From IMG/VR virus record IMGVR_UViG_3300011258_000040, positions 1 through 26,040 of that record: a stretch of 26,040 nt of DNA; one strand, written 5' to 3'. The first letter of the stretch is position 1; every line of letters begins with the position of its first letter. The notes beneath the pieces were generated by a model. The model did no database searches. It saw only the letters and a program-made list of their open reading frames with translations, and was not told the DNA's origin. Shown here piece by piece: positions 4,204 through 18,856 of this stretch. The DNA comes from a virus (lineage: Duplodnaviria; Caudoviricetes). The position numbers were made by a program, and so were the translations under genes.

Positions 4204-4501
4204 TATCTCAGGAATATTTTATAGAAAATTCTGAGGTGGTATATCACTGTAGCGGCACCCGAGTTTCCCCCATACAATCACCAGTTGCGTGGCTGTAAGT
4301 GTCCCCTGAGTGAACTTTGTGTACACCTGAGCAAGGTATATATAGCAGTGAGAAGGTAAAACGGCGGCGGCGGTATACATAAAGAAATATCTAGGCGTGT
4401 CTTCGTGCTCGTCTGTTTTTTTAGTTTGGTACACCTAGTATACACATAGAATACGCATAGACTACATATAGTATACACGTTGTAATACATACTATATCTA
4501 T

Positions 4502-4519
4502 TAAGGTTCCCGTATAAGA
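4502..4519 (+). promoter_or_regulatory. putative phage RNAP promoter (origin/packaging-type)
   Basis: TAAGGTTCCCGTATAAGA matches the copies at 7731 and 10242. Confidence 0.7.
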
Positions 4520-4571
4520 TATATAAAAGTCAATACAGTGTATACTATGTGTATATATGTATGTGTGTATG

Positions 4572-4630
4572 TACTCAGGGTATACTTAGGGTATATACTC
4601 AGGTGTCTTAGGTGTACTAAGTGTATATAC
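4572..4630 (+). repeat. tandem degenerate short repeats (tac-tYagg-gta/tg)
   Basis: tactcagggta / tacttagggta / tatactcaggtg / tcttaggtg / tactaagtg. Confidence 0.75.
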
Positions 4631-4680
4631 ACCTTATAACTATTCTAATGTAAGTATAGAATAGAGGTGTCTGTTTTTTT
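4629..4680 (+). terminator. hairpin plus U-tract terminator
   Basis: acacct/aggtgt and ctattcta/tagaatag stems followed by ctgttttttt. Confidence 0.55.
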
Positions 4681-4963
4681 CTTAGTCATGCATATCGTGC
4701 ATACCTGTTATGCAAAAATAACATTGGTGTTTAAAATTGTATCTGATATTGTGTTTTTATGTTCAATAATTTAAATACTTACCAAGTGCTAACAGCAGTG
4801 ACAGAAGGCTTAAGCTTAAGTTTTAAATTGTTTCTGACAGCCTCAGCATCATAGAGGTCACACGGGTGTGACAGCCCCAAATAAGTCGGACACCGCACCA
4901 GTAGAAATACGAGCCGGTCTAGCGCTTCAGCGTGATTGCTTTGAGCCAGTACAAACAAAATTA

Positions 4964-5019
4964 TGTTTGTCTCATATTATCAATATGACTGATGAGCTAC
5001 AGTAACAGCGAAACAAACA
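4964..5019 (+). ncRNA. hammerhead ribozyme 1 (type III), predicted cleavage after C4971
   Basis: tgttt-GTC^ tcatatt-atc-aatatga CTGATGA gct-acagtaac-agc GAAA c-aaaca. Complete core with stems I, II and III all pairing. Confidence 0.9.
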
Positions 5020-5033
5020 AACTGAGGTTTATT

Positions 5034-5276
5034 ATGAATAAGCAAGAATTAAGAAAAACAATATTAGACAAAATAAACAAAGCTAAAAACGTTTATGTTC
5101 ACAATGGTTTTACAGAATTTTATTTTAAAACTATTAAATCTGATATGTTATATCACTTTAGAAAAACTTACAAAGAAGCTAATTATAACGGCAATCAATT
5201 GCACCTTTTAGAATGGTTAAACGATTTCAATGACCGTGCAACACTGAATGATGACGGTGATTTAATGTTTGACTAA
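5034..5276 (+). CDS. early hypothetical protein (80 aa)
   Basis: GAGG RBS before ATG 5034. The track's 4992 ATG lies inside the ribozyme core. Confidence 0.75.
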   Translation: MNKQELRKTILDKINKAKNVYVHNGFTEFYFKTIKSDMLYHFRKTYKEANYNGNQLHLLEWLNDFNDRATLNDDGDLMFD

Positions 5277-5285
5277 TAATCAACG

Positions 5286-5310
5286 GGCGGCGCTCTTAAT
5301 GAGCGTTGCC
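5286..5310 (+). other. GC-rich hairpin immediately 5' of hammerhead 2
   Basis: ggcggcgctc-ttaat-gagcgttgcc, 10 bp with two G-U pairs and no U-tract. Confidence 0.7.
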
Positions 5311-5311
5311 G

Positions 5312-5362
5312 GCTGTCTGACGTTGTCAACGTCACTGATGAGACTTATTAAGTCGAAACAGC
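5312..5362 (+). ncRNA. hammerhead ribozyme 2 (type III), predicted cleavage after C5317
   Basis: gct-GTC^ tgacgtt-gtc-aacgtca CTGATGA gactt-att-aagtc GAAA c-agc. Confidence 0.92.
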
Positions 5363-5384
5363 AAACAAACAAACTGAGGTTATT

Positions 5385-5549
5385 ATGAAATATAATCACA
5401 CTATACAAAAGATACTAACTCAACACCACGCTGACAAGTTTAAAAACAAAGTTAGTAAAGAGGAGCATTTTAGAAACTATGCTAAAGAAACAGACAAAAA
5501 CAAAAAAATTGAGATGTTAAGACAAGCGGCTCAAGAAGGGTGGATATAA
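5385..5549 (+). CDS. early hypothetical protein (54 aa)
   Basis: GAGG RBS; MKYNHTIQKILTQHHADKFKNKVSKEEHFRNY...AAQEGWI*. Stop is coupled to the next ATG. Confidence 0.75.
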   Translation: MKYNHTIQKILTQHHADKFKNKVSKEEHFRNYAKETDKNKKIEMLRQAAQEGWI

Positions 5550-5860
5550 TGGATATTGCACAAATCAATTTCCCAATCAAAGACAATGACGGCGTTAAGT
5601 TAAAAGCGCCGTTGTTAATTCAGAAAGAGCTATGCGCTAAATTTGGCGGATGTACCGCCTACAATGGCGCCGGCTCATGGGTCAATGAGCGTGGCAAGCT
5701 ATACGCTGAGCCAGTTAAGATAATACAGACAGCCTTTAAAAATAACTCTAAAAATAGATTGTTTTTAAAAAACTTAGTTAAGAAATACGGTAAACTATCA
5801 AAACAAGAAGCCGTTTATCTTGCTATTAATAACAATGCTGATATAATTAATATCAAATAA
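5549..5860 (+). CDS. early protein, PII-like / DUF3574-like fold; possible SAM lyase
   Basis: FGGCT...GAGSW....G....E and ...KQEAVYL pattern; TAATG-coupled start at 5549. Confidence 0.5.
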   Translation: MDIAQINFPIKDNDGVKLKAPLLIQKELCAKFGGCTAYNGAGSWVNERGKLYAEPVKIIQTAFKNNSKNRLFLKNLVKKYGKLSKQEAVYLAINNNADIINIK

Positions 5861-5885
5861 CAACCAAACATAGGAGCGTTAAAAC

Positions 5886-6146
5886 ATGAGTAAAAAACAA
5901 ATCGACCAAAAAAGTTTATATGTAGAAAAAAGCGGTGATAAAGAAATTTATTACAGTTATAATACGACTGTTGCGGTTAAAACACCTATTGATACGTACG
6001 TTTGTGAAAACGTATGGAGCATGACAACAGCTAAACACCTTAATCGTATTGAGGAGCTGACCGGTAGTGATAGAGAATACCGGATGAGATACAGCGACTT
6101 TAGACAATTTTGTAGAAATAACAACGTTAATAAATATTACATTTAA
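5886..6146 (+). CDS. early hypothetical protein (SYxTxVA...SxTTxKH type)
   Basis: AGGAG RBS; YSYNTTVAV...WSMTTAKHLN motif, recalled as common in small phage early proteins. Confidence 0.8.
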   Translation: MSKKQIDQKSLYVEKSGDKEIYYSYNTTVAVKTPIDTYVCENVWSMTTAKHLNRIEELTGSDREYRMRYSDFRQFCRNNNVNKYYI

Positions 6147-6307
6147 TGAACTTGTCAAATTTAAGAGGCGTCACTATTCAAAAAAATGTAGCCCTAAGCA
6201 TTATCAGGGCGCATGGCTGTGAATGTGAGCTTAGCGACTTTTATAAAAACTTAGGAAACAAACAAACCTATTCGGCTATAAAACTATATCACTGGTTAGG
6301 TTATTAA
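6146..6307 (+). CDS. early hypothetical protein (53 aa)
   Basis: TAATG coupling; MNLSNLRGVTIQKNVALSIIRAHGCECELSDFYKNLG...LYHWLGY*. Confidence 0.7.
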   Translation: MNLSNLRGVTIQKNVALSIIRAHGCECELSDFYKNLGNKQTYSAIKLYHWLGY

Positions 6308-6316
6308 TAATAAACA

Positions 6317-6377
6317 GAGCGAAACAGCCCGCCATACGTGCGGGTTGTCTCATGGTTAAGCCATGACTGATGAGCTC
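6317..6377 (+). ncRNA. hammerhead ribozyme 3 (type II permutation), predicted cleavage after C6349
   Basis: gagc GAAA cagcccgc-catacgt-gcgggtt-GTC^ tcatgg-ttaag-ccatga CTGATGA gctc. Stem II (gagc/gctc) closes the two ends. Confidence 0.92.
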
Positions 6378-6414
6378 AGTAAGTTCAAACAACCAAACAT
6401 AGGAGCGTAGCAAT

Positions 6415-6546
6415 ATGAATATGCTATTTAAAATAATATATAACTATCTACACGAAAAAATGCTCGCTGATGAGCAAGCTTTTAGAAATAAAAGATTAGC
6501 CGTGAGAATGAAGTTAAACAACGGTTACAGCAAGGCGGGTCACTAA
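6415..6546 (+). CDS. early hypothetical protein (43 aa)
   Basis: AGGAG RBS; MNMLFKIIYNYLHEKMLADEQAFRNKRLAVRMKLNNGYSKAGH*. Coupled to the next ATG. Confidence 0.7.
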   Translation: MNMLFKIIYNYLHEKMLADEQAFRNKRLAVRMKLNNGYSKAGH

Positions 6547-6854
6547 TGCCTAATATCGTTGTATCTAACTTTATTAATGAGCGTTGGGTTGACCGGCTGT
6601 ACCAAAATTTTAATAAGTCAGTATACTTGTTAAAACCTGATGGAACTGTTGACCCTTGCAAAGTAAAAAAGGTAAAATCAAAATACTATTTAACCAGTAC
6701 GGGTAAATGGTTTAATAGTTCCGGCATGCGTATAGATGAGCCCGCCGGTCTTGATAAACGAGCGGAGCTTAGCAAGTTTCACTCTGAGCTTGAGAAAGCT
6801 GAGATTGACGCTAAGTTTCAAAAACTAAAACAAACAATAACAAAAGGACATTAA
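6546..6854 (+). CDS. early hypothetical protein
   Basis: ORF track; translationally coupled start. Confidence 0.8.
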   Translation: MPNIVVSNFINERWVDRLYQNFNKSVYLLKPDGTVDPCKVKKVKSKYYLTSTGKWFNSSGMRIDEPAGLDKRAELSKFHSELEKAEIDAKFQKLKQTITKGH

Positions 6855-6855
6855 T

Positions 6856-7083
6856 ATGTACATAGAGATGTCAAACTTAAAAATAACTGAAGTTGAAGTT
6901 AAAAACGGTGAGCGTAAAAAAGGTAAATGGGTTGATTATAAAAAACCTATTGAAGTTCCAAAAGTTGTATTTGAGGATAGTTATACAAATTTAATGGATG
7001 TTGCTTCAGAAATAAAACATGCCGCACAGCGTAGCCCGCAAAACAAAATAATTGTGACGTTTGAAGTTAATGCTGAGTGGTAA
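6856..7083 (+). CDS. early hypothetical protein
   Basis: ORF track; AAGGA RBS. Confidence 0.8.
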   Translation: MYIEMSNLKITEVEVKNGERKKGKWVDYKKPIEVPKVVFEDSYTNLMDVASEIKHAAQRSPQNKIIVTFEVNAEW

Positions 7084-7085
7084 AA

Positions 7086-7170
7086 GTAACACTGATGAGC
7101 CTATTATGCGTGGTAAGTGAATACCACGTGGCGAAACTAGAGCCGGTACTATCCGGCTTTAGTCTGTTAC
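7086..7170 (+). ncRNA. hammerhead ribozyme 4 (type I permutation), predicted cleavage after C7164
   Basis: gtaaca CTGATGA gcc-tattat-gcgtggta-agtgaa-taccacgt-ggc GAAA ctagagccgg-tactat-ccggcttta-GTC^ tgttac. Stem I (gtaaca/tgttac) closes the two ends. Confidence 0.93.
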
Positions 7171-7198: not shown

Positions 7199-7381
7199 AT
7201 GATTGAACTAATACTCGAACTACCGTTTGAAGGTCACGTATTAATACTAGGTACAATAATAGCCGGTATAATATATGCAATGCGTACACCTAAGAAGGAG
7301 CCTAGCATTAACCCGTTTGAACAAACAACACAACTAACTGATAAACAAATCAAAGCACTCGAGGAGCACAATGACAGATAA
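7199..7381 (+). CDS. small membrane protein
   Basis: AAGGAG RBS; VLILGTIIAGIIYAM TM segment. Confidence 0.75.
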   Translation: MIELILELPFEGHVLILGTIIAGIIYAMRTPKKEPSINPFEQTTQLTDKQIKALEEHNDR

Positions 7382-7733
7382 AGAACAAATACAACATCTA
7401 ATAGATAAAAATAACAAGTTAGAAGCTGAGCTTATTGTCTTAAAAACTAAAGCAACAGGTTGGTTTGAGGATATAGCGGAGCTTCGTAATACATTAACTA
7501 TACGCAATACTGAGCTTGCAAGTTATAAACAAACTAAAATAGATTGGGAGCTTAAAAAGAAAATCATATTGTTTTTACAAAAAACACAATCTGTTGAAGC
7601 GTATGACGCAATGACACCAAACCAAATAGCACACAGAGCGGCGCAATTTATAGAGAATATACTTAACTCAAAATTGCCACCAAAGCTTGCTATTCCGCTT
7701 GAGTTACAAGTTACTACTAGGGAACCCGACTAA
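7371..7733 (+). CDS. coiled-coil hypothetical protein
   Basis: GAGGAG RBS; heptad-like N-terminal half. Confidence 0.8.
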   Translation: MTDKEQIQHLIDKNNKLEAELIVLKTKATGWFEDIAELRNTLTIRNTELASYKQTKIDWELKKKIILFLQKTQSVEAYDAMTPNQIAHRAAQFIENILNSKLPPKLAIPLELQVTTREPD

Positions 7734-7748
7734 GGTTCCCATAGTAGA
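7731..7748 (+). promoter_or_regulatory. putative phage RNAP promoter upstream of the RNAP gene
   Basis: TAAGGTTCCCATAGTAGA, 16/18 identical to the 10242 copy. Confidence 0.75.
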
Positions 7749-7790
7749 TATTATAAACATAACCCACTGATAATTATAGGAGTTAGACAT

Positions 7791-10238
7791 ATGGCACGAT
7801 TAATCGAGAGCATGCCTACTTACAAAGACGAGTTGGCACATGAAAAAGAGATGAAAAGTTTAGGTTCTAATAGAACTAATAAACGTTTACAATCTCACAT
7901 AGAGAGAGAAGAAGAAAGTGTTACCAGTTATGGTAAAGTAATGGTAGCAAACACGATAAGACCTTTAGCAATGGCTATTGCTGAATGGACACAAGAACAA
8001 TCTAAAAAGACAATAGGCAAACCTTCTATTGCCTTCTTAAAGATGTGTGAAGTAGAGCCTGAGATACTGGCATTAATTACTGGTAAACACATCATAAATA
8101 CAATCACACAACAAAAACCATTAACGGCAACGTGTATATCATTGGGTGGTAAAGTTGAGACTGAGATTAGTCTTAAAAACTTTAAACATCTAAACCCTGA
8201 CTTATATCAAACTGTCAAACAAGACTTAGATAAGCGTAGTTTTAATTATACTTATAAGCGTAGAAAACTAAGAGAGAGTGCTAAACGTGATGAGATAATG
8301 AAATGGGAAGAGTGGACAACACCTGTTAAATTACACGTAGGACTTCGATTAGTTGAGCTTATGATTTATTCTACAGGCATGATTGAAATAGGCACTGAGA
8401 CTGTTAAACATAAAAAAGCAAAAGTAATAAAACAAACTGATAAAACTAGAGAATGGATTAAAAGTAGAAATAGTTTTAATGAACTACTTAATCCTGAGTA
8501 TTTGCCGACTGTCATGGCTCCAAAATTATGGACGTCAGTAGTTGGTGGCGGTTATTGGACAAAAGAGTTACCTGAACTTGAGCTTGTTAAACAAAAAAAC
8601 AAGAAATACAAAAAGGAACTTGAAAACTTTGACATGCCTGAAGTGTATGATGCTGTCAATACAATGCAAGCAACACCATTTAAGATTAATAATTTTATCT
8701 TAAAAGTTATGCAAGAAGCGTGGGACAAAGGATTAGCTGTTGGTGGTTTACCACCTAGTACTAATTATGATATTCCAAACAAACCGCATGACATTGAAAC
8801 TAATGTTGACAGTAGAAGAGAATGGAAGAAGAGAGCTGTAATGGCTCACACTGAAAATGCTAGAATGTTTTCTAAACGTTTGTTGTATGCTAAAATTATA
8901 CATCTTGCACAAAAGTTTAAAGATTATGAAACTATGTATTTTCCATTGCAATTAGATTTTAGAGGTAGAGCGTATGCAGTGCCTGCGTTTCTTAACTATC
9001 AATCTATTGGTGGTGCTAAAGCTTTATTATCTTTTTCACATGGCAAACCAATCACAAAAGAAAACAAAGGTGATTATTGGTTGGCTATACATGGTGCTAA
9101 TCAATACGGTGAAGATAAAATATCTTTTGCTGACCGTGTTAAATGGACTAAAGATAATGAGAGTTGGATTATTGATTGTGGTACTGACCCAATGTTACAT
9201 AGACAATGGGAAAAGGCATCTAATCCGTTTCAATTCTTATCATTTTGTGATGAGTGGAAACGATTTAAAGAACAAGGATATGGATTTGTCTCAAGTATTC
9301 CTGTAAACGTAGATGGTTCTTGTAACGGTCTACAAATTTATTCTTTAATGTTAAGAGACGAAAAAGCAGGTAAGCTTGTTAATTGTTTACCTAGTAAAAC
9401 ACCGCAAGACATTTATCAATTAGTGGCAGATGCTGTTAATGATAAATTAAAACTTGATGCAAAAGAAAACAAACCTTTTGCTCAGTTGTGGTTAGACTAC
9501 GGAGTTAAGCGTTCAACTACTAAAAGAAGTATTATGACTATCTGTTATGGTTCAACTAGATATTCATGTACTGACTTTGTAATTGAAGACTTAACAAAAC
9601 GTAAAGACAAAGGAGAAAACCATCCATTTACAGATGAGATATTCAAACCGGCTAGTTATTTAGCAAGTGTCATATGGGACAGTATCGGTGATAATTTGAA
9701 GTCTGCTAGAATTGGTATGGATTATCTACAAACAATCGCACGTATAGTTGCGAAACAACAACTACCAGTGCACTGGGTTACGCCTGTTGGCTTTCCAGTG
9801 TATCAGTCATATCCTGAGATGAAGTCTAAAAGAGTTAAGGCTATGTTGATGGGTGAAGTTATTAAGCCTCGTATAAATACTGAGACTGACCTAACTGACA
9901 AATTACGAATGGGTAACGGAGTAGCACCTAACGTAGTTCACTCGGTAGATAGTGCCGCTATGATGAGTACAGTTAATATTGCATACAAAAATGGTATCAC
10001 TAATTTCTGTAATGTACATGATAGTTTTGGTACAACAGCAGGTGATGTTGAAACACTTAATAAATCTATTAGAGAAGCATTTATTAAAATGTTTACTGAA
10101 CATGATATTCTTAATAATTTTAGAAATGATGTTCTTAAACAACTACCTGAAGAGCTACACGATAAATTACCTGAAGTTCCCGCCAAAGGTGATTTAGATA
10201 TTCAACAACTGCGGGACAGTGAGTTCTTTTTTGCGTAG
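7791..10238 (+). CDS. single-subunit T7-type RNA polymerase (gp1)
   Basis: DFRGRAY, motif A VDGSCNGLQ, motif B RSTTKRSIMTICYG, motif C VHDSFGT, C-terminal FFFA. Confidence 0.99.
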   Translation: MARLIESMPTYKDELAHEKEMKSLGSNRTNKRLQSHIEREEESVTSYGKVMVANTIRPLAMAIAEWTQEQSKKTIGKPSIAFLKMCEVEPEILALITGKHIINTITQQKPLTATCISLGGKVETEISLKNFKHLNPDLYQTVKQDLDKRSFNYTYKRRKLRESAKRDEIMKWEEWTTPVKLHVGLRLVELMIYSTGMIEIGTETVKHKKAKVIKQTDKTREWIKSRNSFNELLNPEYLPTVMAPKLWTSVVGGGYWTKELPELELVKQKNKKYKKELENFDMPEVYDAVNTMQATPFKINNFILKVMQEAWDKGLAVGGLPPSTNYDIPNKPHDIETNVDSRREWKKRAVMAHTENARMFSKRLLYAKIIHLAQKFKDYETMYFPLQLDFRGRAYAVPAFLNYQSIGGAKALLSFSHGKPITKENKGDYWLAIHGANQYGEDKISFADRVKWTKDNESWIIDCGTDPMLHRQWEKASNPFQFLSFCDEWKRFKEQGYGFVSSIPVNVDGSCNGLQIYSLMLRDEKAGKLVNCLPSKTPQDIYQLVADAVNDKLKLDAKENKPFAQLWLDYGVKRSTTKRSIMTICYGSTRYSCTDFVIEDLTKRKDKGENHPFTDEIFKPASYLASVIWDSIGDNLKSARIGMDYLQTIARIVAKQQLPVHWVTPVGFPVYQSYPEMKSKRVKAMLMGEVIKPRINTETDLTDKLRMGNGVAPNVVHSVDSAAMMSTVNIAYKNGITNFCNVHDSFGTTAGDVETLNKSIREAFIKMFTEHDILNNFRNDVLKQLPEELHDKLPEVPAKGDLDIQQLRDSEFFFA

Positions 10239-16926: not shown

Positions 16927-18677
16927 TAGATTACGAAAGAGATAATTTACTTACTGATTTTGGTAAGACAACATTAAAAGATAGGTACTTATTACCAGAA
17001 GAAACATCACCTCAAGAAGGTTTTATGAGAGCGGCAAAAGCTTTTTCTGATAATGATGAGATGGCACAGCGTATATATGATTATGCATCTAAACTTTGGT
17101 TCATGTATTCTACGCCTGTTTTGTCTAATGCCGGTAGTAAAAGAGGTATGCCTATTTCATGCTTCTTAAATTATGTAGGTGATAGTAGAGAAGGATTAAC
17201 AGGACACTACACAGAGAACGCATGGCTTGCTTCTGTGGGTGGTGGTATCGGTGGCTACTGGGGACATGTAAGAAGTGATGGTACACAGACTTCAGGTGGT
17301 TCACAGTCTTCTGGTTCAATACCTTTTTTACATGTAGTTGATAGTGAGATACTTGCTTTCTCTCAAGGTAAAACAAGACGTGGTAGTTATGCGGCATACA
17401 TGGATATATCACATCCTGAGATAATAGAATTTTTAGAAATGAGAAAACCTAGCGGTGGTGATGTACACAGAAAATGTCTTAACCTACATCATGGTATAAA
17501 TATATCTGATGAGTTTATGCGTTTAATTGACAACTGTATTAAAGAACCAACGTTTGATGATAGTTGGAATTTAATTGACCCGCACACTAAAAAAATAGTA
17601 CGGACTGTTTCAGCTAGAGATTTGTGGTTAAAAATATTAGAGACAAGAGTTGCCACTGGTGAGCCTTATGTTTCATTTATTGATACAGTAAATGATGCAT
17701 TGCCTGAGACACAGAAAAAACTAGGATTAAAAGTAAATCATTCTAATCTATGTACAGAAATAACATTAGCTACTGATGAAAATAGAACAGCAGTCTGTTG
17801 TTTGTCTTCTGTAAATATAGAAAAGTATGATGAATGGAAGAACAATAGTTTATTTATACCTGACTTAATTAGATTTTTAGATAATGTATTACAATACTTT
17901 ATTGACAAAGCACCTGATGAATTGTTTAGAGCAAAGTTTAGTGCAAACAATGAAAGAAGTATTGGCTTAGGTGCTATGGGTTTTCATGCATATTTACAAT
18001 CAAGAGGTATAGCTTTTGAAGGTGCGCTTGCTAAATCATTAAACATGAAAATATTTAAAAGTATTAAAGAACAAGCTGTAGAAGAAAGTAAAAGACTAGC
18101 AGTTAAAAGAGGTGAGGCTCCAGACATGGAAGGTACAGGTATGCGTAATGCACACTTGTTAGCTGTGGCACCAAACGCATCATCATCTATTATTTGTGGT
18201 ACTACATCACCATCAATAGAACCATACAGAGCAAACGCTTATGTACAAAAAACAATGTCAGGTTCATTCTTAGTTAAAAATAAATACTTAGAAAAATTAT
18301 TAGATAAAAAAGGTATTAACACTGAAGAAACGTGGACTTCTATTTTAGCAAACAGAGGTTCAGTATTACATTTAGATGAATTATCTGATAATGAAAAAGA
18401 TATATTTAAAACAGCAATAGAAATTAATCAGCAATGGATAATTGAACATGCGGCAGACAGACAACAACATATTTGTCAAGGACAATCAGTTAATGTATTC
18501 GTACCTGCTGATGTAAACATAAAAGAATTACATGATATACATATGTTAGCTTGGAAGAAAAAGTTAAAGACTTTGTATTACTGTCGTTCAGAAGCAATTA
18601 AAAGAGCTGAGTTAGTATCTAAAAAAGTAGAAAGAACAATTATACCTGAAGCTGATTGTTTAGCATGTGAGGGATAA
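16923..18677 (+). CDS. nrdA: ribonucleotide reductase class Ia alpha subunit (no ATP cone)
   Basis: STPVLSN, PISCF, SNLCTEI, VCCLSS, APNASSS, TLYY, C-terminal CLAC. Confidence 0.97.
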   Translation: MIDYERDNLLTDFGKTTLKDRYLLPEETSPQEGFMRAAKAFSDNDEMAQRIYDYASKLWFMYSTPVLSNAGSKRGMPISCFLNYVGDSREGLTGHYTENAWLASVGGGIGGYWGHVRSDGTQTSGGSQSSGSIPFLHVVDSEILAFSQGKTRRGSYAAYMDISHPEIIEFLEMRKPSGGDVHRKCLNLHHGINISDEFMRLIDNCIKEPTFDDSWNLIDPHTKKIVRTVSARDLWLKILETRVATGEPYVSFIDTVNDALPETQKKLGLKVNHSNLCTEITLATDENRTAVCCLSSVNIEKYDEWKNNSLFIPDLIRFLDNVLQYFIDKAPDELFRAKFSANNERSIGLGAMGFHAYLQSRGIAFEGALAKSLNMKIFKSIKEQAVEESKRLAVKRGEAPDMEGTGMRNAHLLAVAPNASSSIICGTTSPSIEPYRANAYVQKTMSGSFLVKNKYLEKLLDKKGINTEETWTSILANRGSVLHLDELSDNEKDIFKTAIEINQQWIIEHAADRQQHICQGQSVNVFVPADVNIKELHDIHMLAWKKKLKTLYYCRSEAIKRAELVSKKVERTIIPEADCLACEG

Positions 18678-18856
18678 TGACAGACAGTGGATTATTTGAT
18701 GGTGTTAATTATAAACCAATCAAAAAGAAAAAAAGAAAACAAAACAAGAAACAAAAACAATCTGTGTTATGGACAGTATATCATACAATCCTAGCAGTAG
18801 AGTTGTTAATAATAATTATAATAGAAGGAATAGAATTATATGTCAGACAATTATAA
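18677..18856 (+). CDS. small basic plus TM protein (59 aa)
   Basis: TAATG coupling; MTDSGLFDGVNYKPIKKKKRKQNKKQKQSVLWTVYHTILAVELLIIIIIEGIELYVRQL*. Confidence 0.6.
   Translation: MTDSGLFDGVNYKPIKKKKRKQNKKQKQSVLWTVYHTILAVELLIIIIIEGIELYVRQL

Follow-up and report, generated by a model that had tools for sequence, protein, structure and literature searches.

The window analysed here is a 26,040-nt stretch of viral DNA (Duplodnaviria/Caudoviricetes; IMG/VR record IMGVR_UViG_3300011258_000040, positions 1-26,040), and the elements under study are four hammerhead ribozymes, HHR1 to HHR4, located in its early region between the non-coding left end and the RNA polymerase gene, amid small genes of unassigned function; all four are intergenic and on the sense strand. 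The polymerase (7791-10238) shares 99.9% identity with its counterpart in Pelagibacter phage HTVC031P, most of the length of the window shows ~99% DNA identity to the HTVC031P genome, and the T7-like RNA polymerase, the gene order and the lack of an integrase upstream of the polymerase place the phage in the HTVC031P lineage of the HTVC019P-type pelagiphages. HTVC031P itself is described without an integrase (bioRxiv 10.1101/410191), and the phage is described as lytic, grown on cultured SAR11 and ranked among the most abundant phages of the ocean (PMC11066056); the GenBank record of this nearest phage lists protein-coding genes only and no ribozymes. A descriptor scan of both strands of the window, requiring the hammerhead core, returns exactly four hammerheads, all on the + strand and in the order type III, III, II, I, and none in 100 dinucleotide-preserving shuffles scanned on both strands; the original prediction that all three circular permutations lie within 2.2 kb is thus borne out.

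The array and its genes, all on the + strand, follow one another closely. The non-coding left-end region (4204-4963), which matches a stretch of HTVC031P without an annotated gene, putatively carries the promoter(s) and a leader of ~200 nt that HHR1 would cut off. HHR1 (type III, 4964-5019) has stems I/II/III of 7/3/7 bp, the second being 4 bp long in HTVC031P, and is predicted to cut after 4971; the 3' strand of its stem III is overlapped by an A/C-rich leader with a Shine-Dalgarno sequence (5011-5029; repeat family D2), followed by early gene 1 (5034-5276, 80 aa, no family match). A GC-rich 10-bp hairpin found by folding (5286-5310) lies immediately 5' of HHR2 and is predicted to cap the 3' end of the message for gene 1; four relatives have a comparable hairpin, with another sequence, 5' of the HHR2 orthologue (L024, L028, L047, L081; L numbers designate loci). 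HHR2 (type III, 5312-5362; stems 7/5/5; predicted cut after 5317) precedes four small early open reading frames (ORFs) that occupy 5385-6307 (5385-5549, 5549-5860 with a DUF3574 match, 5886-6146 and 6146-6307), and HHR3 (type II, 6317-6377; stems 7/4/9; predicted cut after 6349) precedes three more within 6415-7083 (6415-6546, 6546-6854 and 6856-7083). HHR4 (type I, 7086-7170; stems 6/3/11; predicted cut after 7164) begins 2 nt past the stop codon at 7081-7083 and leaves, as originally stated, a 34-nt leader to the ATG at 7199, where the genes after the last cut begin (7199-10238: 7199-7381, 7371-7733 and the T7-like polymerase, phrog_414, E 3e-261). Loop II of HHR4 contains an inserted 8-bp hairpin (7108-7129) that is found in part of the group at 90-100% polymerase identity, L002, L017, L020 and others having a plain 5-nt loop instead; the 5' arm of this hairpin repeats 7078-7083 just upstream.

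All four ribozymes share CUGAUGAG, CGAAAC and the cleavage triplet GUC, and each presents the core that defines the hammerhead class (CUGANGA, GAAA and UH around a three-way junction), with stems I, II and III paired beside it (1.1-2.1, 10.1-11.1, 15.1-16.1). The stem I pairings first quoted are correct for all four, and HHR3 can gain a seventh pair, U-G. The best-matching Rfam models are RF00008 Hammerhead_3 for type III, RF02276 Hammerhead_II for type II and RF03152 RAGATH-1-hammerhead for type I; HHR3 (25.6 bits, cut-off 37) and HHR4 (29.9 bits, cut-off 56.3) fall below the gathering threshold, and HHR1 and HHR2 have no match at E<=1. Every scanned copy from the clade also scores under these thresholds, the best orthologue being the HHR2 counterpart in L024, with 45.5 bits against the Hammerhead_3 threshold of 48.5 (E 9e-7), so that routine annotation pipelines would miss the ribozymes. 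Such scores weaken the filing into families, not the hammerhead reading. Folded as isolated cores, HHR2, HHR3 and HHR4 adopt the hammerhead as their minimum-energy structure, that of HHR1 lying 1.3 kcal/mol above the minimum; in context, secondary-structure prediction at 37 C gives stem I/II/III probabilities of 0.94/0.96/0.53 for HHR2, 0.96/0.56/0.97 for HHR3 and 0.91/0.92/0.97 for HHR4. In types II and III a U follows six stem I pairs in every copy listed, and most type III copies have a CAGNA-like loop II; type I has an A at the same stem I position in 102/105 copies, with a U-rich loop II. This conserved stem I position, taken together with loop II, makes a tertiary contact likely as far as sequence can tell, and inspection by eye revealed no clear pseudoknot of at least 4 bp.

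Two further candidates were rejected. At 6290-6307, upstream of HHR3, a sequence that looks like the decayed core of a type I, possibly left over from a fusion of types I and III, proves to be the terminal part of ORF 6146-6307, with synonymous variation in L004; a fifth hammerhead at CTGATGAG, at 6467 or 17506, has no stems, and both sites fall within ORFs. Five public runs contain a little of the stretch, in each case in the form of contigs already assembled. Two contigs of run X1, whose status as RNA is a guess, end at 7157 and start at 7166, thereby flanking the HHR4 site, and another spans the HHR3 site, while contigs of run X2 span those of HHR1 and HHR4; at depths of 2-6, contig ends are no evidence either way on cleavage.

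The hammerheads are conserved in relatives. The scanned set of 89 sequences comprises the window, records of 11 cultured phages and 77 viral contigs identified via the polymerase; 41 of them have at least 2.9 kb upstream of the polymerase gene. A strict scan yields 167 matches in 62 of these 89 sequences, many of the others having little DNA upstream of that gene, and at least two hammerheads are present in every one of the 31 loci that combine a polymerase identity of at least 82% with at least 2.9 kb upstream. Among the other ten of the 41, HTVC109P has four, HTVC019P two, and HTVC021P and HTVC121P one each; six of the 41 are without a hammerhead by the strict scan, two of which have a variant type III by profile search, and for L084-L088 the first 7-7.8 kb of the records were covered, so that a first-position ribozyme at the other end would escape. 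In seven loci the strict scan also passed over a type II whose stem III is mismatched, and the profile search recovered these copies. All three types occur in 12/18 loci at polymerase identities of at least 90% by strict scan and in 16/18 once these mismatched copies are added; they occur together in HTVC109P as well, and in none of the 13 loci at 82-85%, which are laid out as III-I-I (six), type I only (six) and III-II-II (one). The accompanying polymerase tree is a quick version that served for orientation only and was not used to count changes. A search of prokaryote genomes returned a single contig, the pelagiphage-like L349 (NZIV01000032.1), with types III and II and a polymerase of 74% identity; it sits in a genome bin labelled Neomarinimicrobiota and is possibly mis-binned.

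Evidence for function comes from covariation. Across 18 type I copies chosen to represent the breadth of the clade, pairing is found in 99.6% of 269 cells and 10/15 pairs change on both sides, in all three stems, a level that 0/500 shuffles reach and that no slid control comes near; covariation in types II and III is seen by eye. Selection on the fold of type I is thus well supported, and the selection on function proposed at the outset with it. Some variation touches the ribozymes themselves: the type III copy of HTVC121P (L085:668) has a ~60-nt insertion in loop II, and the core-adjacent pair 10.1-11.1 departs from the usual G-C in a few loci, being U-A-like in L070/L071 (1894-1955) and A-U in L034/L035/L072, with the rest of the core kept. 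A separate conserved motif of ~12 nt, GACTAGACGGC, occurs three times each in the early regions of HTVC109P (L082:1174, 1216, 1437) and HTVC019P (L083:2337, 2754, 2989), and nowhere else in those genomes, as well as in several ribozyme tails of L003, L028 and L029; often within or beside ribozymes, and absent from the window, HTVC031P and HTVC142P, it could be a promoter or a protein-binding site.

Hammerhead arrays are common, three types within one array are not. Two pattern scans of IMG/VR, sampling 2 and 1 of its 64 parts, imply thousands of stretches with hammerhead-like patterns. With looser descriptor settings, and using the first 80 of 135 and of 125 loci (those with flanks) minus 10 same-contig duplicates, several hammerheads lie within 3 kb in 18/74 type II-seeded and 10/76 type I/III-seeded contigs, no valid fold being found in 23 and 40, respectively. 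Three of these 28 arrays, on two contigs, belong to the same pelagiphage clade as the window; the remaining 25, from other viral contigs, comprise 20 with one type, five with two types and none with three. An unrelated viral contig, L145 (IMGVR_UViG_3300038412_000035), carries at least nine type II hammerheads in ~4.2 kb.

The four hammerheads had been taken for unrelated sequences of independent origin, and neither claim survives comparison. Over 29 nt HHR1 is 76% identical to HHR2 and 72% identical to HHR3, an identity that is largely the invariant core; HHR1 and HHR2 are each then followed by an identical 19-nt leader (5011-5029, 5363-5381), and a second leader motif, of 16 nt, is repeated at 5862, 6391 and 7176. 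One contig of run X2 (depth 3.2) joins two leader copies of a relative's allele, which share 18-19 nt, skipping 349 nt with the loss of gene 1 and HHR2, and the natural layouts of L029 and L080 match this leader-joined deletion. L005 and L006, whose polymerases are 99.8-99.9% identical, carry a type I hammerhead at the 5860-5886 junction, where the window has none, and L044 and L064 retain a type I remnant with a deleted core. As leader and core segments are common to the four and swapped as cassettes, the four are not independent. Type II itself may have arisen within such arrays. Of 11 distinct type II tails, six give better alignments than shuffled tails do to the first type III (loop II, stem II and the GAAAC region), the fraction of shuffles reaching the score being 0.01-0.10, the other five being no better than shuffled; by eye, the type II front half resembles the type I back half. 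Recombination between types I and III at the cleavage triplet they have in common would yield just such a type II, tail included, which makes this origin a possible one, shared function being able to produce the same likeness.

This mobility raises the question as to whether the motifs persist mainly as recombination handles, or as near-neutral passengers of mobile gene cassettes, cleavage mattering little. The loss of a cassette via a shared leader, the core-deleted remnants, the site that is empty in the window and filled in near-identical phages, and the scarcity or absence of hammerheads in more distant pelagiphages would all fit such an explanation. However, the compensatory changes keep all three stems while lowering sequence identity, the opposite of what a recombination handle needs, and the profile search finds few decayed copies, cores being intact in the great majority of those detected (a partly circular result, as the scan requires cores); we therefore regard passengers or handles as a very improbable account of the array.

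A more specific proposal, contained in the original prediction, is that topology encodes differences in stability or translation, every block of early genes being matched to the permutation that gives its message the right half-life. Type is indeed constant at orthologous sites within the clade, not random, and the three types persist in 16/18 loci at 90% polymerase identity or more, compared with a single type in 20/25 arrays elsewhere, as such a code would have it. But position wins where gene and position separate. The first type III stands ahead of 8 gene families in 30 loci, and none of 28 mixed arrays has a type III after a type I or II. One gene family has type I upstream in 32 matches and type III in 2, another type I in 2 and type III in 1, and members of both have type III whenever the gene is first in the array (gene cluster D0, which merged two families by single linkage, was separated by length and type, by eye). 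Moreover, the same type I core stands ahead of one gene in L020 and L021 and of another in L022 and L024, and sister clades have type I alone alongside similar genes. These associations suggest that topology tracks the position in the array and not a code for message lifetime, the array order being one inherited plan more than a repeated choice.

The ends that cleavage would leave point the same way. They are set by topology plus flank, in predictions on related sequences by programs that ignore tertiary contacts and ribosomes, and flanking hairpins largely even out the differences between topologies. In internal positions, the final 45 nt of the upstream product fold with a mean energy of -18.9 kcal/mol for type III (n=4, one lineage), -15.0 for type II (n=14) and -19.5 for type I (n=48), compared with -8.0 kcal/mol for first-position type III (n=20); the type III topology leaves no 3' hairpin of its own on the upstream product, and at HHR2 the separate GC-rich hairpin at 5286-5310 supplies one. 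On the downstream side, the expectation had been two 5' hairpins for type III, one for type II and none for type I. It holds for HHR2 and for HHR4, whose nearly unstructured leader forms 4 bp, but fails for HHR1, whose product is predicted to pair the core with the ribosome-binding site, and for type II, where the prediction is of a second hairpin in the product, formed by capture of the core and a stem II strand. In HHR3 this hairpin joins the core and the stem II 3' strand (6371-6376) with the tail (6382-6387), and all 12 distinct type II tails (25 loci) allow at least 6 bp with the core strand, compared with 2.4 expected from shuffles, through two pairing solutions used by six tails each. 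Type I products can form a 5' helix of at least 5 bp in 18/38 distinct sequences (9.0 expected), and a type I tail pairs with its own strand better than with the average foreign strand in 30/43; the HHR4 product is in this respect an exception. Only a 4-bp 5' helix is found in 12/14 distinct sequences of the last-position type I ahead of families D1, D4 and D7, which lends the code some substance, since the product that carries the polymerase message may be the least protected. Nevertheless, the predicted 3' ends are alike across types and differences among type I 5' ends go with the flank and not with topology, so that a stability code as first stated is not supported and must be judged unlikely.

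Type I also lies close to the upstream gene. Where there is such a gene (64 distinct type I contexts), the start of stem I falls within -10 to +3 nt of the end of the stop codon in 61, the stop codon falling inside stem I in 28. A terminating ribosome would cover stem I, which might hold back the cut or strip the product once cleavage has occurred; alternatively, the overlap may only mirror a compact genome. This overlap is one reason for considering the ribozymes as translation- or fold-gated switches, cutting being confined to times when the upstream stop is free of ribosomes (type I) or to the release of a competing helix (types II and III), whereby processing would report host translation. 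Competing helices exist for HHR1 and HHR3, and the predicted accessibility of the ribosome-binding site behind HHR4 rises from 0.41 to 0.82 on cleavage; however, it barely shifts for HHR1 (0.40 to 0.38) and HHR2 (0.60 to 0.65), for types I and II, transcription reaches the competitor later than the ribozyme, which speaks for an action following cleavage, tight packing at stop codons is to be expected in a compact phage genome, and Rfam found no ligand-binding element in the window. Gating of this kind is therefore a rather improbable explanation.

Taken together, the observed conservation, covariation, positions and gene associations, along with the predicted product folds, make it probable that intact hammerheads cut a long early transcript, that their topology answers local constraints, and that ribozyme cassettes recombine; a single early transcript, cleavage in the cell and effects on stability are what we infer from them. 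The host polymerase would make one early transcript from the left end, HHR1 would trim its ~200-nt leader, and HHR2 to HHR4 would release the gene blocks with 5'-hydroxyl and structured 3' ends without the need for a host enzyme. The result would be a leader and four gene blocks, each predicted to carry a protective 3' hairpin and most of them a 5' hairpin. Type III, which puts almost nothing on the upstream piece, would suit the trimming of a non-coding leader; with types I and II, the upstream message would retain the hairpins of the ribozyme itself, and the start of type I can fall inside the upstream stop codon. Where topology would bare an end, the flanking sequence would provide a hairpin, and the gain, loss and swapping of ribozyme-leader-gene cassettes by recombination between shared cores and leaders would explain the mixture of types. 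As for the enzymes such ends would meet, Pelagibacterales are reported to have a short RNase E (PMC5436854), and a 5'-hydroxyl end is reported to remain a substrate of RNase J1 (PMC3997798), which would give a reason for the 5' hairpins if the host has RNase J.

Several observations weigh against this account. In context, the stem I/II/III probabilities of HHR1 are 0.86/0.04/0.00, a predicted misfold shared by several orthologues, and HHR1 may consequently cut slowly or not at all; an upstream copy of the stem III 3' strand (4951-4957) is weakly predicted to pair with 4964-4970 in competition with HHR1 stem III, and an upstream competitor helix of at least 6 bp is found in 12/19 type III contexts against 5.8 expected, a weak excess. 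The type-I-only layout of six loci and the III-II-II layout of one at 82-85% polymerase identity mean that no single layout is required. Some gene families are constant in type (a 43-aa family with type II in 18 matches, the gene at 7199 with type I in 33 and the gene at 5385 with type III in 19), which a gene-linked code would equally predict. The 28 mixed arrays are related and their leading type III is one inherited element, so that "III first" does not amount to 28 independent events, just as the four internal type III sequences represent one lineage. Among mixed arrays from other contigs, type III comes first in three of five (L118, L228, L303), of which L228 shares early genes with the pelagiphage clade, and not in the other two (L245, L254).

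A wider reading would combine a grammar of hammerhead cassettes with stop-codon gating, strand-exchange helices and an origin of type II by recombination; all of these holding jointly is a possibility that we advance only tentatively. Under such a grammar, type III would trim the leader and type I would be built on the upstream stop, where a terminating ribosome might gate the cut or strip the product. A strand-exchange helix might then refold the product, block re-ligation and set 5' protection, leaving the polymerase message least protected, and type II might have arisen inside the array by recombination between types I and III at the shared cleavage triplet, as an ongoing circular permutation.

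The remaining features lie outside the array. One or more host-polymerase promoters are tentatively placed near 4715-4770, where they would give the leader its ~200 nt; a single sigma-70-like match (9/12) lies at 4743-4770, TTGACA occurs at the aligned place upstream of HHR1 in 3/17 relatives, and a promoter scan of the window shows no excess (20 sites versus 23.5 in shuffles). No conserved structure was found in the leader upstream of HHR1, the consensus energy over 17 sequences being -3.4 kcal/mol. Further left, in the non-coding end at 4430-4640, a GTATAC-containing unit recurs as short direct and inverted repeats that probably represent genome-end or packaging signals. At 18676-18680 the window lacks ~105 nt that HTVC031P has at the end of its ribonucleotide reductase alpha gene.

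For bacteria and phages, the role of self-cleaving ribozymes is still described as an open question (PMC6765202), and most examples come from uncultured contigs or prophages. Here a cultured phage and host are at hand, so that RNA-end mapping through infection can test the array directly, and natural alleles with and without single ribozymes, along with type-I-only sister clades, provide ready comparisons; if true, the cassette grammar would explain how the three permutations interconvert and offer evolution-tested insulator parts. No report of hammerheads in pelagiphages or of a type order in arrays was found in a literature search to which subscription papers were mostly inaccessible, and the word "ribozyme" is absent from the main texts of two papers on HTVC031P.

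In known systems, phage hammerhead clusters and the idea that they process polycistrons have precedents; what is added here is a three-type array, real and conserved, in a cultured pelagiphage. In the early transcript of phage T7, RNase III removes the leader and cuts the polycistron into gene blocks with 3' hairpins and 5'-phosphate ends. The present array belongs to the same phage family and occupies the same genome position, self-cleavage being predicted here with 5'-hydroxyl instead of 5'-phosphate ends. Self-cleavage is known to leave 5'-hydroxyl and 2',3'-cyclic phosphate ends and needs no host enzyme (PMC6765202). The same 2019 review by Weinberg et al. presents the processing of polycistrons into products of differing stability or translation efficiency as a hypothesis, the role of bacterial ribozymes being largely elusive; in the text available it draws no link between permutation type and product fate, a link that was added by the original prediction and is weakened by the present analysis. 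The repeated regulatory elements of T4-type phages RB49/phi1, the PeSL cassettes, lie between non-essential early genes and bring about a recombinational shuffling of modules (Arbiol et al. 2010, PMC2839356); a PeSL consists of a promoter and a terminator hairpin, whereas the repeated element of the pelagiphages is a ribozyme with a ribosome-binding leader. Close counterparts are the prophage clusters of Perreault 2011 (PMC3088659), whose hammerheads flank single genes or short blocks of no constant identity, cleave in vitro and in E. coli, and are proposed to process polycistronic RNA, types I, II and III all occurring in bacteria. Type order, stop-codon overlap and product-refolding helices do not appear in the available text of that study (Figure 3, which gives the types in clusters, excluded). 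The pelagiphage array resembles these clusters in having several co-oriented hammerheads that flank genes or short blocks in a phage genome, and differs from them in that a lytic marine T7-like phage gathers all three types, without a clear 4-bp pseudoknot, within a single array of 2.2 kb.

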